A stretch of 64,000 nt of DNA from Escherichia coli. Its GTDB lineage: Bacteria; Pseudomonadota; Gammaproteobacteria; Enterobacterales; Enterobacteriaceae. Location: assembly GCF_013122565.1 (NCBI RefSeq), contig NZ_CP053258.1, one strand, 5' to 3'. The notes under the pieces were generated by a model. That model had not been told where the DNA came from and did no database searches. It was given only the letters and a program-made list of their open reading frames with translations. Every line of letters starts with the position of its first letter. Position 1 is the stretch's first letter. A program made the translations under genes and the position numbers. This document shows, one piece after another, positions 8,244 to 64,000 of this stretch.

Positions 8244-8286
8244 AAATTTCTCTTCTGCTGTTTATTTGATACCCATCACACTTTCA

Positions 8287-8314
8287 TCTCCCGGTTTTTT
8301 CGCCGGGAGATTTT
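8287..8314 (+). terminator. rho-independent terminator after ubiI
   Basis: stem tctcccgg/ccgggaga followed by TTTT. Confidence 0.55.
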
Positions 8315-8689
8315 CCTCATTTGAAATAAACTAATTTCACCTCCGTTTTCGCATTATATTTTCTAATGTCACGAATTTTTGATTTAGTGTTTTTTGACAT
8401 TTTTTCAGCTCTTAATATTGCCTTATTCAAATTAACTCTCTCATCACATCATCTTTATATAGAAATTGGTGTGTTTTTTGGTTTTTTATTCCGTTGCGAT
8501 TTTGGCGTTTTTTAACCATAAGCTAATGTGATGATCAATTTTACCTTATGGTTAACAGTCTGTTTCGGTGGTAAGTTCAGGCAAAAGAGAACGATTGCGT
8601 TGGGGACCGGGAGTGGCTCCGATGCTGGGTTTCGTGGTGATAATTTCACCATGAAAAGTTGTCAGCCCCGCTTATTCAATGAGGACAAG

Positions 8690-9807: not shown

Positions 9808-10197
9808 ATGAGCAACGTACCAGCAGAACTGAAATACAGCAAAGAACACGAATGGCTGCGTAAAGAAGCCGACGGCACTTATACCGTTGGCATCACCGAA
9901 CACGCTCAGGAGTTGTTGGGCGATATGGTGTTTGTTGACCTGCCGGAAGTGGGCGCGACGGTTAGCGCGGGCGATGACTGCGCGGTTGCCGAATCGGTAA
10001 AAGCGGCGTCAGACATTTATGCGCCAGTAAGCGGTGAAATCGTGGCGGTAAACGACGTACTGAGCGATTCCCCGGAACTGGTGAACAGCGAACCGTATGC
10101 AGGCGGCTGGATTTTCAAAATCAAAGCCAGCGATGAAAGCGAACTGGAATCACTGCTGGATGCGACCGCATACGAAGCATTGTTAGAAGACGAGTAA
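9808..10197 (+). CDS. gcvH: glycine cleavage system H protein (lipoyl carrier)
   Basis: 129 aa [17 protein letters not shown]..., lipoyl-lysine motif region ESVKAASD. Confidence 0.95.
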
Positions 10198-58441: not shown

Positions 58442-59194
58442 TTGAGTGCGGGACGCCTGAATAAAAAATCTCTGGGTATCGTGATGTTGTTATCGGTTGG
58501 ACTGCTTTTGGCGGGCTGTTCGGGTAGCAAATCATCCGATACAGGAACGTATTCCGGCTCCGTTTACACCGTGAAACGGGGGGATACTCTATATCGTATT
58601 TCGCGCACCACGGGAACCAGCGTAAAAGAGCTGGCGCGACTGAACGGCATTTCCCCCCCTTACACCATTGAAGTTGGTCAGAAACTAAAACTGGGTGGGG
58701 CGAAAAGTAGCAGTACACGTAAATCAACCGCCAAATCAACGACCAAAACCGCATCTGTTACACCGTCATCAGCGGTACCGAAATCTTCCTGGCCGCCAGT
58801 AGGGCAACGTTGTTGGTTATGGCCAACGACAGGGAAAGTTATCATGCCGTATTCGACAGCTGATGGCGGCAATAAAGGGATTGATATCTCAGCACCACGG
58901 GGTACACCTATTTACGCCGCGGGTGCAGGAAAGGTGGTGTATGTAGGCAATCAGCTGCGTGGCTACGGTAATCTCATCATGATTAAACACAGTGAAGATT
59001 ATATTACGGCTTACGCACATAATGACACGATGCTGGTTAATAATGGGCAAAGCGTGAAGGCTGGGCAAAAAATCGCCACTATGGGGAGCACTGATGCGGC
59101 ATCTGTTCGCCTGCATTTCCAGATTCGTTACCGTGCAACGGCAATTGATCCGCTACGTTACTTGCCGCCTCAGGGCAGCAAGCCAAAATGCTGA
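58442..59194 (+). CDS. ygeR: LysM-domain / M23-peptidase-family lipoprotein
   Basis: lipobox LLLAGC, LysM (YTVKRGDTLYRISR) and M23 LytM-like C-terminus; start uncertain (TTG at 58442 with RBS gagga, TTG at 58418, or ATG at 58484). Confidence 0.8.
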   Translation: MSAGRLNKKSLGIVMLLSVGLLLAGCSGSKSSDTGTYSGSVYTVKRGDTLYRISRTTGTSVKELARLNGISPPYTIEVGQKLKLGGAKSSSTRKSTAKSTTKTASVTPSSAVPKSSWPPVGQRCWLWPTTGKVIMPYSTADGGNKGIDISAPRGTPIYAAGAGKVVYVGNQLRGYGNLIMIKHSEDYITAYAHNDTMLVNNGQSVKAGQKIATMGSTDAASVRLHFQIRYRATAIDPLRYLPPQGSKPKC

Positions 59195-59272
59195 TGGCGA
59201 ATTAATCAGCAGTCAGCAGCGCGGCACTTGCTAAGGAGAGCGTAAGGTTTATAATGCCTTACGCATCTCGAA

Positions 59273-59346
59273 GCGGGCGTAGTTCAATGGTAGAACGAGA
59301 GCTTCCCAAGCTCTATACGAGGGTTCGATTCCCTTCGCCCGCTCCA
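59273..59346 (+). tRNA. glyU: tRNA-Gly (anticodon CCC)
   Basis: 74 nt cloverleaf GCGGGCGUAGUUCAAUGGUAGAACGAGAGCUUCCCAAGCUCUAUACGAGGGUUCGAUUCCCUUCGCCCGCUCCA; encoded CCA. Confidence 0.95.
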
Positions 59347-59579
59347 ATTTATCTTCACCTCATCAACCTGCCATTTTTGTTGTATCTGATTTTCTATATT
59401 ATCTTAATTCAATCGGTTCAGACTTTTCGCAATCGCCGTAATACTTCCCCATTTTTTTGTAAATAAAAAGCGATTACGCAATGCAATCCTTTTGTAACAA
59501 TCCAGGTAAAATACCTTATTTTCAAGTTGTTAAATAAGTGGTTATCTACGCTTTTAACAAACGATTGATGGAATATTTT

Positions 59580-61190
59580 ATGAAAGGGAAATCTGCATTA
59601 ACTCTTCTGCTCGCTGGTATATTTTCATGCGGCACCTGCCAGGCGACAGGGGCAGAAGTGACGAGTGAATCTGTATTTAACATTCTTAATTCCACGGGGG
59701 CAGCAACAGATAAAAGTTATTTATCGTTAAATCCAGATAAGTATCCTAATTATCGTCTTCTGATTCACTCAGCCAAATTAAAAAATGAAATAAAGAGCCA
59801 CTATTCCAAAGACGAAATTCAAGGATTGTTAACATTAACAGAAAATACACGAAAGTTAACGTTGACGGAGAAACCCTGGGGAACATTTATTCTTGCTTCT
59901 ACTTTCGAAGATGACAAAACAGCGGCAGAAACCCACTATGATGCTGTCTGGCTGAGGGATAGTTTATGGGGCTATATGGCCTTAGTATCAGATCAGGGAA
60001 ATAGTGTAGCCGCAAAAAAGGTTCTGCTCACCCTGTGGGATTATATGTCTACGCCCGACCAGATTAAGCGGATGCAGGACGTCATTAGCAACCCAAAACG
60101 ACTGGATGGAATTCCTGGGCAAATGAATGCTGTGCATATCCGATTTGACAGCAACTCCCCCGTGATGGCGGATGTGCAGGAAGAAGGCAAGCCGCAGCTG
60201 TGGAACCATAAACAAAATGATGCGTTAGGTCTTTATCTTGATCTCCTTATACAAGCAATCGACACTGGTACTATTAACGCTGAAGATTGGCAAAAAGGTG
60301 ACCGATTAAAATCGGTTGCGCTGCTGATTGCTTATCTGGATAAAGCCAATTTCTATGTTATGGAAGATTCCGGAGCGTGGGAAGAAGATGCCAGATTAAA
60401 CACATCTTCCGTTGCACTGGTGACCTCTGGACTGGAACGTTTGTCGAACTTACTCTCGAAGAAAGACTCTGTTTTTGTCTCTGATTTACTACGTGAAGCT
60501 AAAGCCAATGAACTGGATGAACCTCTTTCAACAACGAGGTTGAACCACCTCATAGATAAAGGTTATGAAAGAATAACGTTACAGCTTGATTTAGGGGGAG
60601 AATCCCCAGGTTATCTGGAAAAAGATAAACATTACAGAGAAGCCGATGCGGCTTTACTTAATGTTATTTATCCTGCAAATCTTTCAAAGATAAACACCAG
60701 AAGAAAAGAGCAAGTTCTAAAAATAGTTAAAAAACTAGCAGGTCCGTATGGTATAAAAAGATACGAGAAGGATAATTATCAGTCGGCAAATTTTTGGTTC
60801 AATGATATTAAAACCGATACCGATCAAAATTCGCATGCAAAAAGAGAAAAGAGCTTCATTCCATCAACAGAAGCAGAATGGTTTTTTGACTCATGGTATG
60901 CAAAATCAGCAGCAATTGTTTATAAAGAATCAAGAAAAGAAGAGTATTTGAATGACTCAGTGCAATTTATGAATAGATCATTGGCCCAAATAACAGGCGA
61001 GAATATGATTGGTGCAAATGGCAGGAGTGTACCTGAAATGGCACTTCCCGAAAGCTATAACTATATCCACAAGTCGGGAACTTTGCATGAAGCGCCAAGC
61101 CCTATCATTCCGCTAAATTGGTCGAAAGCATCAATGACTCTCATGTTGAAAGAGATGTCCAACCTTATCAATGATGAGGGAAATAAATAG
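59580..61190 (+). CDS. secreted glycoside hydrolase family 15-like protein (glucoamylase / glucodextranase fold)
   Basis: signal peptide MKGKSALTLLLAGIFSCGTCQA; GH15-type motifs WLRDS and EDSGAWEED; start uncertain (GTG 59538, ATG 59568 or ATG 59580). Confidence 0.7.
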   Translation: MKGKSALTLLLAGIFSCGTCQATGAEVTSESVFNILNSTGAATDKSYLSLNPDKYPNYRLLIHSAKLKNEIKSHYSKDEIQGLLTLTENTRKLTLTEKPWGTFILASTFEDDKTAAETHYDAVWLRDSLWGYMALVSDQGNSVAAKKVLLTLWDYMSTPDQIKRMQDVISNPKRLDGIPGQMNAVHIRFDSNSPVMADVQEEGKPQLWNHKQNDALGLYLDLLIQAIDTGTINAEDWQKGDRLKSVALLIAYLDKANFYVMEDSGAWEEDARLNTSSVALVTSGLERLSNLLSKKDSVFVSDLLREAKANELDEPLSTTRLNHLIDKGYERITLQLDLGGESPGYLEKDKHYREADAALLNVIYPANLSKINTRRKEQVLKIVKKLAGPYGIKRYEKDNYQSANFWFNDIKTDTDQNSHAKREKSFIPSTEAEWFFDSWYAKSAAIVYKESRKEEYLNDSVQFMNRSLAQITGENMIGANGRSVPEMALPESYNYIHKSGTLHEAPSPIIPLNWSKASMTLMLKEMSNLINDEGNK

Positions 61191-61256
61191 TTTTCATAAT
61201 GAGGCGGTCCTGGATTAAAAGGACCGCTCAAAGAGAAATCGAAAGGGGAGGTAAAA

Positions 61257-61436
61257 GTGATCAATAAATTACTGTTAGCTTACCTGATAGGTCTGGTTGT
61301 GACATCGACTTTAATATTTATCTTCTCGGAAGAAAAAGTAACATATCGGTTGTTTGCTGCAATAATTACAGGTTTAACCTGGCCGCTTAGTCTCATTCCT
61401 TCCATTATAAGTCTCATGATTCGTAAATCCGACTAA
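61257..61436 (+). CDS. hypothetical small membrane protein (59 aa, two predicted TM helices)
   Basis: GTG start with strong RBS aaggggagg 5 nt upstream; two hydrophobic stretches (LLLAYLIGLVVTSTLIFIF, LFAAIITGLTWPLSLIPSIISLMI); absent from the ORF track because of the non-ATG start. Confidence 0.4.
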   Translation: MINKLLLAYLIGLVVTSTLIFIFSEEKVTYRLFAAIITGLTWPLSLIPSIISLMIRKSD

Positions 61437-61781
61437 CAAGAAAATTATATGATCGATTAAGAAAAATAGAATCGAACAGGAGAATAAAATATATGCGGGG
61501 AGTAACAAAACACTCGCAGTGCGTTAATGAAGAACTAACAAATATGATTTGTATTGAAAATAGTTACCAAACAAGTGTTATAAGAAATACGAGGTGTGTT
61601 TAAGTAAAGCATATCAACAGTTACAAATCTGTATATGGACAGGATGACGTACAAGTGTAAGTGGCTGATAGCTATTCGCTCATAACAAAATCATTATTTT
61701 ATAAATAGGAATCATCACTTTTTAATCATGTTTTTATAGCAATTTTATGGAGAATGAGAATATGGAATAAGGAGATGAAAC

Positions 61782-62531
61782 ATGATTGAAGAAGGGCTGT
61801 TACTTCCAATGAATGTTTTGCTTCAAGGACAGAAGTTAACCCTACTGGACCCTGAAATGTGGTTCTTACGGGGAAATGAAAACAAGGATGTAACCCTTGT
61901 TATTACGATCGGTAATAACCATCAAAAATTAATGGTAGTGGAAGATATATTACTGCTCATTGACCGAAGCCAAATTGAGGTAACGGCAGGGAAAGTAATT
62001 TATCATCCACTTCGCATTGATATCCTGAGTAAATTATTAGCTTTTATAGATGAATCAACGGGGAGTGTGGAAAGGGAGCACCATGAGTTGTTTGCTGATG
62101 CCTTGCCCTTTGCATCAGAAGTTGTGCTATTCAGTAAAGTTGCTAGTGAAGCCTGGTTTTTAGCCACTTATCTGAGCAGCGATAATATTAATGAAGTTCT
62201 GTTTCAGCATCTAAGAAAAACAGAATGCTATAAACTGGTTCGCTATTTATTATCGCAATCGCTTATACAGACTTCACTCTATGATCTTGGAGAGCTTTAC
62301 GGCGTATCGTATTCACATTTTCGCCGTTTATGTAGTTATGCATTGGGTGGTAAAGTTAAAACGGAATTATGTGGCTGGAGAGTTGCCAGAGCCGTGTTGG
62401 AAATCATTGAAGGAAACAGTGATATGACAACTATTGCGCATAAATATGGCTACTCTTCCTCATCACACTTTTCAGCCGAAGTAAAAAGCCGGTTAGGAAA
62501 AACACCGAGAGAACTATGTAAAAAGCTATGA
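61782..62531 (+). CDS. eivF: AraC-family transcriptional activator, InvF-like (ETT2 type III secretion regulator)
   Basis: 249 aa; C-terminal AraC HTH (GVSYSHFRRLCSYALGGKVKTEL...YGYSSSSHFS) closely parallels Salmonella InvF; RBS aaggag. Confidence 0.8.
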   Translation: MIEEGLLLPMNVLLQGQKLTLLDPEMWFLRGNENKDVTLVITIGNNHQKLMVVEDILLLIDRSQIEVTAGKVIYHPLRIDILSKLLAFIDESTGSVEREHHELFADALPFASEVVLFSKVASEAWFLATYLSSDNINEVLFQHLRKTECYKLVRYLLSQSLIQTSLYDLGELYGVSYSHFRRLCSYALGGKVKTELCGWRVARAVLEIIEGNSDMTTIAHKYGYSSSSHFSAEVKSRLGKTPRELCKKL

Positions 62532-64000
62532 AAATAAAAATACGCATTACTATTATATTAATTTCAGTCTTATGCATTTTTAATGGATTATCGACTCCTG
62601 GTGCATATGCCGCAGCAGCGAATGGATACGTAGCAAATAAAGAAAATCTACGTAGTTTTTTTGAAACGGTTTCATCATATGCGGGTAAGCCTACAATAGT
62701 TAGTAAGCTTGCCATGAAGAAACAGATCAGCGGAAATTTTGATTTAACAGAACCCTATGCCTTGATTGAACGCCTGTCGGCACAGATGGGGCTTATTTGG
62801 TATGATGATGGCAAAGCTATTTATATCTATGACTCATCAGAGATGCGTAATGCATTGATTAATCTGAGAAAGGTATCGACGAATGAGTTTAATAATTTCT
62901 TAAAAAAATCGGGTCTGTATAACTCTCGTTATGAAATTAAAGGGGGCGGCAATGGTACTTTCTATGTATCGGGGCCACCGGTTTATGTTGACCTGGTCGT
63001 TAATGCTGCGAAATTAATGGAGCAAAACAGCGATGGCATTGAGATCGGTCGAAATAAAGTAGGAATAATTCATCTGGTCAACACATTCGTTAATGACCGG
63101 ACTTATGAGTTACGTGGCGAAAAGATAGTTATTCCTGGCATGGCAAAAGTACTATCGACGTTGTTAAATAATAACATTAAGCAAAGCACAGGGGTGAACG
63201 TACTTTCTGAAATTTCAAGTCGTCAACAACTAAAAAACGTATCACGTATGCCTCCTTTTCCTGGGGCTGAAGAAGATGATGACCTACAAGTAGAGAAAAT
63301 AATATCGACAGCAGGAGCGCCAGAGACTGACGATATACAAATTATTGCATATCCTGATACCAACAGTTTACTTGTTAAAGGAACAGTATCTCAGGTTGAT
63401 TTTATCGAGAAGTTAGTAGCTACGCTTGATATTCCAAAGCGACACATTGAATTATCTTTATGGATAATAGATATTGATAAGACTGATCTAGAACAGCTAG
63501 GTGCTGACTGGTCGGGCACGATAAAAATTGGATCCAGCTTAAGTGCATCATTTAATAATTCAGGTTCAATTAGTACCCTTGATGGGACACAGTTTATTGC
63601 AACAATACAGGCACTTGCACAAAAAAGAAGAGCCGCCGTTGTTGCTCGTCCCGTCGTTTTAACACAGGAGAATATTCCTGCTATATTTGATAATAACCGC
63701 ACTTTCTATACTAAATTAGTCGGCGAGCGTACTGCGGAATTGGATGAAGTAACCTATGGTACGATGATTAGCGTGCTACCACGATTTGCTGCGCGAAATC
63801 AAATTGAATTACTCTTGAATATTGAAGATGGAAATGAAATCAATTCCGACAAGACCAATGTTGATGATCTGCCTCAGGTTGGTAGAACACTTATAAGTAC
63901 TATTGCACGCGTGCCCCAAGGGAAAAGTCTTTTGATTGGGGGATATACACGCGATACGAATACCTATGAAAGTCGCAAGATCCCAATATTAGGCAGCATT
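62528..64000 (+). CDS. eivG: type III secretion system secretin, InvG/YscC family; 3' end beyond the window
   Basis: open frame from the ATG at 62528 to the window end, hand-translated; signal peptide, then near-colinear similarity to InvG (FYVSGPPVYVD, IIAYPDTNSLLVKGT, RPVVLTQENIPAIFDNNRTFYTKL, GRTLISTIARVPQGKSLLIGGYTRD). Confidence 0.85.
   Translation, partial: MKIKIRITIILISVLCIFNGLSTPGAYAAAANGYVANKENLRSFFETVSSYAGKPTIVSKLAMKKQISGNFDLTEPYALIERLSAQMGLIWYDDGKAIYIYDSSEMRNALINLRKVSTNEFNNFLKKSGLYNSRYEIKGGGNGTFYVSGPPVYVDLVVNAAKLMEQNSDGIEIGRNKVGIIHLVNTFVNDRTYELRGEKIVIPGMAKVLSTLLNNNIKQSTGVNVLSEISSRQQLKNVSRMPPFPGAEEDDDLQVEKIISTAGAPETDDIQIIAYPDTNSLLVKGTVSQVDFIEKLVATLDIPKRHIELSLWIIDIDKTDLEQLGADWSGTIKIGSSLSASFNNSGSISTLDGTQFIATIQALAQKRRAAVVARPVVLTQENIPAIFDNNRTFYTKLVGERTAELDEVTYGTMISVLPRFAARNQIELLLNIEDGNEINSDKTNVDDLPQVGRTLISTIARVPQGKSLLIGGYTRDTNTYESRKIPILGSI

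Follow-up and report, generated by a model that had tools for sequence, protein, structure and literature searches.

The 345-bp spacer in front of eivF (positions 61437-61781) is most likely a promoter that is activated by YgeH and repressed by H-NS. It lies near the right end of the window, which is the whole stretch of Escherichia coli DNA analysed here (64 kb; all positions refer to it). We consider it probable that the spacer, as the eivF promoter, combines a box for activation by YgeH, a weak core promoter, distal DNA that is unconstrained in sequence and at most provides a platform for H-NS, and an open reading frame of 36 codons that arose by chance. Judged by alignment, its last 75 bp (61707-61781) are the only conserved and informative part, and the ORF is located in a part that evolves as if unconstrained. 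These 75 bp contain a direct repeat similar to the HilA box of Salmonella. As first stated, the finding is an ordinary one: the promoter spacer belongs to a foreign island, is AT-rich and contains a coincidental ORF.

At its right end, the window enters ETT2, the second type III secretion island of E. coli, which is inserted beside the gene for tRNA-Gly(CCC) (59273-59346). The local gene order is xdhA (minus strand), actS/ygeR, tRNA-Gly, a GH15 gene, a GhoT-like gene, the spacer, eivF and sctC/eivG. The left edge of the spacer is the stop codon of the toxin gene and its right edge is the ATG of eivF at 61782. The protein-coding genes next to it are the following.

59538-61190: gene for a glycoside hydrolase of family 15 (GH15)
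61257-61436, plus strand: gene for a small membrane toxin of the GhoT/OrtT family, 59 codons, GTG start (Pfam PF10753 Toxin_GhoT_OrtT, E = 1.2e-11)
61782-62531, plus strand: eivF, gene for a regulator of the AraC/InvF family (Pfam HTH_18 and HTH_AraC)

RefSeq names the 59-codon gene a GhoT/OrtT family toxin, and the gene is found in synteny in E. albertii, with 62% amino-acid identity. The top NCBIfam match of EivF is InvF (NF011868), with 185 bits, which is under the cut-off of 259. RefSeq annotates the protein as 'type III secretion system transcriptional regulator EivF' and lists sctC as the next gene; in matching genomes, it annotates the same genes and nothing within the spacer. The eiv (inv-like) apparatus operon begins with eivF, the gene that is controlled by 61437-61781. 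The proposal, made from the sequence alone, that the spacer controls eivF and is part of AT-rich, horizontally acquired DNA is supported by the present analysis.

The region was found in 1327 of the 5426 complete E. coli genomes, and it is chromosomal in every case. A search of genome contigs with EivF returned a single locus, on an E. coli-identical contig binned as 'Collinsella'. The loci of relatives were obtained through protein homologues and exact look-ups. One EivF-like protein attributed to 'Salmonella' (P0030) was set aside; it belongs to a different, IS-flanked secretion system. ETT2 also codes for YgeH, which has Trans_reg_C and TPR domains (HilA type), for EtrB (receiver and GerE domains) and for EtrA (GerE domain).

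In EAEC 042, the mRNAs of eivF and eprH, together with those of other ETT2 genes, are decreased in a ygeH mutant and increased in an hns mutant, and YgeH of this strain complements a hilA mutant of Salmonella (PMC4210603). According to a review, the expression of eivF is raised by EilA (PMC11068852), and the mechanism of eivF control has been called unclear in reviews (PMC10877973). The repeat of about 18 bp described below is a concrete target for the question of how YgeH, EilA, EtrB and H-NS control ETT2. This question is important in view of the cross-regulation of the LEE by EivF and EtrA in EHEC.

The sequence-only reading had described the roughly 350 bp before eivF as strongly AT-rich and as carrying the usual signature of an H-NS-silenced promoter. 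The first statement is correct. With a GC content of 0.301, the spacer is the minimum among all 345-bp windows of the 64 kb (0.05% of these are equally low), compared with 0.514 for the core part of the window and 0.432 +/- 0.055 (minimum 0.313) for the crudely defined intergenic gaps of that core part. Gaps of nearly equal GC content occur at 8244-8527 (0.313) and at 59347-59537, between tRNA-Gly and the GH15 gene (0.309). The AT-richness is real in comparison to the core, yet it does not exceed what any non-coding stretch of this island would be expected to show. Since even the coding DNA of the island has a GC content of only 0.39-0.40, so that the spacer is about 8-9 points below its flanking genes, a value of 0.30 represents the usual drop from coding to non-coding DNA, as it is also seen in the core.

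The second statement holds in part. Like other H-NS-silenced island promoters (ygeH in ETT2, hilA in SPI-1, LEE1), the spacer is AT-rich (30% GC) and is located in a foreign island, and an island-encoded activator fits the counter-silencing scheme. Unlike typical promoters of this kind, it has no excess of high-affinity motifs. The high-affinity motif of H-NS was scored as TCGATAAATT; at a threshold of at least 7 of 10 positions, the spacer has 5 matches versus 7.1 +/- 2.7 in composition-matched shuffles. The spacer has 10 A/T tracts versus 7.6 +/- 2.3 in such shuffles, and its AA/TT autocorrelation has merely a weak peak at 21-22 bp. Thus, no signal above composition was obtained for the spacer in the H-NS motif, A-tract and TpA analyses. 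What stands of the silencing claim is an AT-rich island control region in front of a gene with an increased mRNA level in the hns mutant of EAEC 042, as measured by qRT-PCR (PMC4210603); a special composition or motif content does not. H-NS binds to the ygeH promoter, and the authors of that study understand the effect of hns on ETT2 as being exerted via YgeH (PMC4210603). The effect on eivF may be wholly indirect, through ygeH.

To see which parts of the spacer are conserved, E. coli was compared with the E. albertii locus L012, which has an identical gene order. At the nucleotide level, the two species are 74% identical in the GH15 gene, 66% in the toxin gene, 81% in eivF and 77% in sctC. 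The spacer falls into two parts.

61437-61706, no strand: distal spacer, 270 bp, AT-rich (GC 0.307) and fast-evolving, with no conserved sequence
61707-61781, plus strand: promoter-proximal module of eivF, 75 bp, 88% identical to E. albertii

Between E. coli and E. albertii, the distal part is 48.9% identical, which is the level of shuffled sequences (50.5 +/- 1.5%). By comparison with the 88% of the last 75 bp, this singles out 61707-61781 as the informative part. Over its final 38 nt, the spacer does not differ between the two species. Pairs of E. coli alleles differ on average at 4.1% of positions in the distal part, at 1.6% in the proximal part and at 0.98% in eivF. Only 3 of the 75 proximal columns vary among 10 sampled E. 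coli alleles, and the proximal 78 nt have at least 95% identity in 1310 of the 1311 E. coli genomes with a match. As far as can be read from these alignments, the last 75 bp are clearly under purifying selection.

The sequence-only reading did not mention the conserved 75 bp.

Several other functions of the spacer were considered and rejected. An Rfam scan of 59000-64000 (E <= 1) returned only the tRNA-Gly. The RNA fold of the spacer has z = -2.4 on the plus strand and z = -0.7 on the minus strand; despite the plus-strand value, a structured RNA was dropped as an explanation because the distal sequence is unconserved. The small RNA Esr055, which is said to repress ETT2 genes, maps beside stx1B and not in the spacer. 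The idea that the spacer encodes an antitoxin of the GhoT-like toxin, or an antisense RNA against it, was also discarded, since conservation, a promoter/terminator pair and an Rfam match are all lacking.

The distal part contains the ORF that had attracted attention in the sequence-only reading, either as a leader peptide or as a coincidence.

61478-61482, plus strand: AGGAG, 10 nt before the ATG of the ORF, specific to the window allele
61493-61603, plus strand: 36-codon ORF (MRGVTK...RCV), a chance open frame

The ORF is present, its translation is exactly as quoted there, and the AGGAG is found about 10 nt upstream. Even so, this frame of 36 codons is open by chance and is not a gene. In our judgement, its translation into a leader peptide or small protein that controls eivF is extremely improbable. 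What suggests such a peptide is that, as with leader peptides and upstream ORFs, the frame is short, lies in a 5' spacer and has a Shine-Dalgarno-like motif in the window strain, and that automated gene callers predicted it, unnamed, on some contigs. Its length is, however, within chance: in composition-matched shuffles of 345 bp, the longest ATG-initiated ORF has a mean of 30.8 codons and reaches 36 or more in 30% of cases, as the alternative of a coincidental ORF would have it. The AGGAG is confined to the window allele, because position 61479 is G only there and A in all nine other sampled E. coli alleles, which have AAGAG.

The frame is not conserved either. In 5 of 10 sampled E. coli alleles, codon 14 is a TAA stop codon (GAAGAA to GTGTAA). 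A 34-mer specific for this truncated allele has an exact match in at least 397 complete E. coli genomes, which is given as a lower bound because a synonymous TGC/TGT polymorphism close by interferes with the counting of alleles by 60-nt and 34-nt queries. When the 1327 matches were sampled at even spacing, 12 of 29 full-length rows fell into the class with 95.8-96.2% identity, and all four members of this class that were fetched carry the codon-14 stop; by this sampling estimate, about 40% of the carriers are truncated. Among intact copies of the ORF, most variants change an amino acid. The corresponding E. albertii DNA cannot be aligned with that of the ORF, and it has neither a homologue nor an ATG at that place. 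The ORF has no Pfam match, RefSeq annotates no gene there, and a search for a terminator or attenuator after it found no plus-strand terminator-like site in 61437-61781. Thus, unlike leader peptides, the ORF has an unconserved frame, start context and sequence, and it lacks an attenuator structure. Gene callers should not promote it.

The conserved module contains a direct repeat.

61712-61729, plus strand: direct-repeat box TCATCACTTTTTAATCAT (TCATCAC-N7-TCAT; core of alignment A2), a candidate site for YgeH/EilA

Written as hexamers with an 11-bp period, the box consists of CATCAC (61713-61718), a 5-base spacer (TTTTT) and AATCAT (61724-61729). In E. albertii, Yersinia, E. fergusonii and a further relative (L027), it has the form CATCAT-N5-AATCAT. 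Alignment A2 comprises the 130 nt before eivF-type start codons in E. coli, E. albertii, Y. enterocolitica (ysaE), E. fergusonii and a gut-metagenome relative. Apart from TCATCA, TTT, AATCATGTT and the ribosome-binding site, no block of it is invariant. The eivF/ysaE/invF-like genes that share TCATCA..TTT.AATCATGTT code for proteins that are just 54-57% identical to EivF. The distance from the end of the box to the ATG is 51-52 nt in the five lineages of alignment A2; in the sixth relative, L027, with a protein that is 48% identical, CATCAT-GTTCT-AATCAT is located 62 nt before the ATG.

The box pattern occurs once in the 64-kb window, versus 0.18 occurrences expected. When both strands of the complete 36-kb ETT2 island were searched, the only exact matches were those before eivF and eprH, in each case on the coding strand. 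The eprH copy is TCATCATAATTTGGTCAT (CATCAT-N5-GGTCAT), located 61 nt before the ATG, and it is kept in E. albertii with one change. It agrees with 13 of the 18 invariant positions from the eivF-type alignment, a match of only moderate significance (a rough p of about 0.03 per 100-nt window). By these comparisons, a conserved direct repeat is evidently common to the upstream regions of eivF and eprH.

The HilA box reportedly consists of two hexamers that are 5 nt apart, at about -54 to -37. It lies immediately upstream of the -35 region. The definition used here draws on the Salmonella and Chromobacterium sequences that were analysed (L011, L009 and L026); the Salmonella DNA was located by exact look-ups of PrgI and InvG. 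Salmonella has TTTCAT-AATGA-TTGCAT-CAGGA upstream of invF and TTTCAT-TCTAT-TTTCAT-CAGGA upstream of prgH, both ending 68 nt before the ATG. These repeats are presumably the HilA boxes of SPI-1 (PinvF-1 and PprgH). Upstream of prgH, TAATCT follows 24 nt past the box, which fits this geometry of the HilA box. Chromobacterium has TGTCAT-CAGAT-TTGCAT-CAGGATT 70 nt before the ATG of invF, and a gene for a Trans_reg_C and TPR protein (HilA/CilA type) is located 4.5 kb upstream of invF. A direct repeat of shared layout thus precedes the invF orthologues in three lineages with a HilA-family activator, and Salmonella and ETT2 have it before the prgH orthologues too.

The eivF box resembles the HilA box in having two direct-repeat hexamers 5 nt apart with a TCA(T/C) core, in preceding orthologous operons (invF/eivF and prgH/eprH) and in adjoining a putative core promoter. 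The proteins are also alike, as YgeH belongs, like HilA, to the OmpR/ToxR plus TPR family and can substitute for it (PMC4210603). The sequences differ in their flanks. ETT2 has CATCAy and AATCAT (GGTCAT at eprH), unlike the TTTCAT and TTKCAT of Salmonella; only 7 of 12 hexamer positions match, which is weak, with the TCA(T/C) core kept. ETT2 has an additional, overlapping TCAT 3 nt upstream and is flanked by GTT instead of CAGGA, and its box is located 52-61 nt before the ATG, versus 68 nt for the HilA box of Salmonella. In the searchable literature, no mention was found of the HilA box jointly with ETT2, ygeH, eilA or ysaE, and the HilA-box-like repeat in the 75-bp module appears to be undescribed for ETT2.

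We predict that the box CATCAC-N5-AATCAT most likely recruits YgeH, an OmpR/ToxR-type activator of the HilA family. The paralogue of YgeH, EilA, would also be recruited by the box where it is present. Downstream of the box, the elements needed for initiation can be assigned tentatively.

61750-61761, plus strand: tandem GAGAAT GAGAAT, two candidate -10 hexamers with 4 of 6 matches each
61769-61774, plus strand: AAGGAG, a strong ribosome-binding site for eivF, 7 nt upstream of its start codon (read from the sequence)

The GAGAAT pair is 100% conserved in E. albertii, and its first hexamer aligns with CAGAAT in Yersinia. The AGGAG of the ribosome-binding site is invariant in the five lineages of alignment A2. 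The -10-like hexamers are located 20 or 26 nt past the eivF box, and the corresponding distance is 24 nt in both Salmonella promoters. A scan of the spacer for promoters and terminators yielded nothing above shuffle expectation and no strong sigma-70 site. The lack of a strong consensus promoter is as expected if the promoter is activator-dependent. The weak core promoter would have a candidate -35 region at about 61733-61742 and GAGAAT at 61750 or 61756 as its -10 element. Transcription might then start near 61762 or 61768, giving a leader of about 14-20 nt that includes AAGGAG. The distal 270 bp (31% GC) would serve at most as a composition-based, non-specific platform for the polymerisation of H-NS, which might keep the weak promoter off until YgeH accumulates.

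An entirely different arrangement would have the promoter in the distal spacer or at the GH15 and toxin genes, so that eivF is transcribed by read-through and the 75 bp are only a leader with the translation-initiation region. In its favour, the scan predicted no intrinsic terminator from the toxin gene to eivF, and the strongest conservation is that of the last 38 nt, which include the ribosome-binding site. If eivF were read through, the RNA could form a pairing between the box region (UCAUCACUUU) and the ribosome-binding region (AAGGAGAUGA). This pairing is, however, not kept in E. fergusonii or in the relative L025. The distal spacer lacks conservation between E. coli and E. albertii, so that a promoter located there would need to have been re-invented. 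Yersinia, E. fergusonii and L025/L027 have unrelated genes upstream, yet they keep the distance between box and ATG. We therefore consider transcription of eivF by read-through to be very unlikely. As a weaker addition to the speculation on an ancient promoter element given below, the box might pair with the ribosome-binding site of eivF on RNA read through from the toxin gene, with the consequence that only transcripts from the activated promoter would be translated.

With the 75 bp read as a promoter, the box could be bound by proteins other than YgeH. One possibility is an autoregulatory site of EivF with its chaperone co-activator YgeG, comparable to the MxiE box and to the sites of InvF-SicA. 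ETT2 codes for the homologous pair EivF and YgeG, and the box is an asymmetric element of about 17-20 bp with a T-rich centre beside the -35 region, as are class II sites of the AraC family. The MxiE box is located at about -49 to -33, and with the first GAGAAT as the -10 element, the eivF box would also extend from about -49 to -33. It agrees with the MxiE box GTATCGTTTTTTTANAG at roughly 9-10 of 15 positions, which is a poor match. Unlike in MxiE-box promoters, the eivF box precedes a regulator gene and an apparatus operon and not effector genes. In particular, the same box precedes the apparatus operon eprH, which is hard to explain by EivF. In Salmonella, the prgH-class apparatus operon is under the control of HilA and not of InvF. 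There is no copy of the box upstream of ygeG in the 36-kb island, and EivF together with YgeG failed to activate MxiE-box promoters (PMC9241512). Autoregulation by EivF and YgeG through the box is thus distinctly unlikely.

The box could also be the site of a NarL/LuxR-type regulator (EtrB/YgeK or EtrA, and YsrR in Yersinia), which would bind over or beside the -35 region and either repress or activate eivF. We regard this as unlikely. A binder of the NarL type, EtrB or YsrR, remains a rival to YgeH because the box is equally conserved upstream of ysaE in Y. enterocolitica. Transcription of ysaE is reportedly strongly dependent on YsrRS (NarL-type). Both EtrB and EtrA, which have a GerE domain in common, are encoded in ETT2 itself, and EtrB represses eivF according to reviews, which describe the mechanism as unknown (PMC10877973). 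The architecture of the box argues against such a site, as its direct repeat runs head to tail with a period of 11 bp and shows no inverted-repeat symmetry. Direct repeats with this period are typical of winged-helix proteins of the OmpR/PhoB/ToxR type, and dimers of the NarL/LuxR type usually bind to inverted repeats. In addition, a repeat of the same layout precedes invF in Salmonella and Chromobacterium, both of which have HilA-type activators.

For ETT2, YgeH remains the preferred binder of the box; the chief objection to it is the equal conservation of the box upstream of ysaE in Yersinia. The Ysa system is not known to have a HilA homologue. hilA is missing from most SPI-1-like systems, according to a review (PMC7232297). 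It is tempting to speculate, even if we find it doubtful, that TCATCAy-N7-TCAT is an ancient promoter element of ETT2/Ysa-type islands, kept at a constant distance ahead of the first regulator gene even where a HilA homologue is reportedly absent. If this were true, there would be an unrecognised winged-helix activator in such systems, or else the HilA-type and NarL-type families would have converged on one inherited site.

The gene that precedes the eivF spacer (61437-61781) codes for a small membrane protein of the GhoT/OrtT toxin family.

61257-61436: GhoT/OrtT-family membrane toxin gene; 59 codons, GTG start, GGAGG ribosome-binding site

It is located within the ETT2 island, with the GH15 gene on one side and eivF on the other. 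No ghoS-like antitoxin gene adjoins it. The counterpart from E. albertii is 62% identical, intact and found in the same synteny, and therefore the toxin gene is probably maintained. Between the GH15 stop codon and the toxin start codon there is a GC-rich hairpin (61203-61229; GCGGTCC, a 10-nt loop, GGACCGC). Neither strand shows a U-tract, and the hairpin was not called by the terminator scan.

The neighbourhood of the spacer is eroding in some strains, with examples from the comparison loci L019 (NZ_AP042637.1, 1239-3754), L001 (1-1297) and L017. In one strain, an inserted IS2 separates the GH15 gene from the toxin gene, and, through a deletion, the initial 123 nt of eivF are fused to the central part of the FHIPEP gene (eivA); the spacer itself is still intact in this strain. 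In another strain, an IS66 element adjoins the GH15 gene. The GH15 gene is frameshifted in O157:H7 strain 2159 (L017).

Within the spacer, E. coli alleles fall into two main classes, with GAAGAA in one and GTGTAA in the other (three adjacent substitutions, 61530-61532 in the window). This difference is a multi-nucleotide change rather than three independent SNPs. The E. coli spacer is also present in a contig from a metagenome-assembled genome attributed to "Collinsella sp." (JAIJJM010000090.1, locus L003), which codes for an EivF 100% identical to that of the window. The contig almost certainly comes from E. coli and was mis-binned into that genome.

The first part of the direct repeat that is a candidate YgeH site (UCAUCACUUU, 61712-61721) is complementary to the eivF ribosome-binding region (AAGGAGAUGA, 61769-61778) in nine of ten pairs. 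In the minimum-energy fold of a read-through RNA, the two are paired. The pairing is partial in Yersinia and absent in E. fergusonii and in L025, an eivF-type relative with unrelated upstream genes. On transcripts starting upstream, this predicted pairing could mask translation. A mini-ORF, the stop codon of which overlaps the eivF ribosome-binding site, is found in the same region.

61747-61770: mini-ORF of 7 codons, ATG GAG AAT GAG AAT ATG GAA TAA; within the 38-nt stretch that E. coli and E. albertii share unchanged

It lacks its own Shine-Dalgarno motif, and neither Yersinia nor E. fergusonii nor L025 retains it. The frame is thus likely to be a by-product of the candidate promoter elements, the tandem GAGAAT.

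Upstream of invF, the 13-mer TTGCATCAGGATT is the same in Salmonella enterica (L011, 1681-1693) and Chromobacterium phragmitis (L026, ca. 9921-9933), being a promoter element that is notably conserved between Gamma- and Betaproteobacteria.
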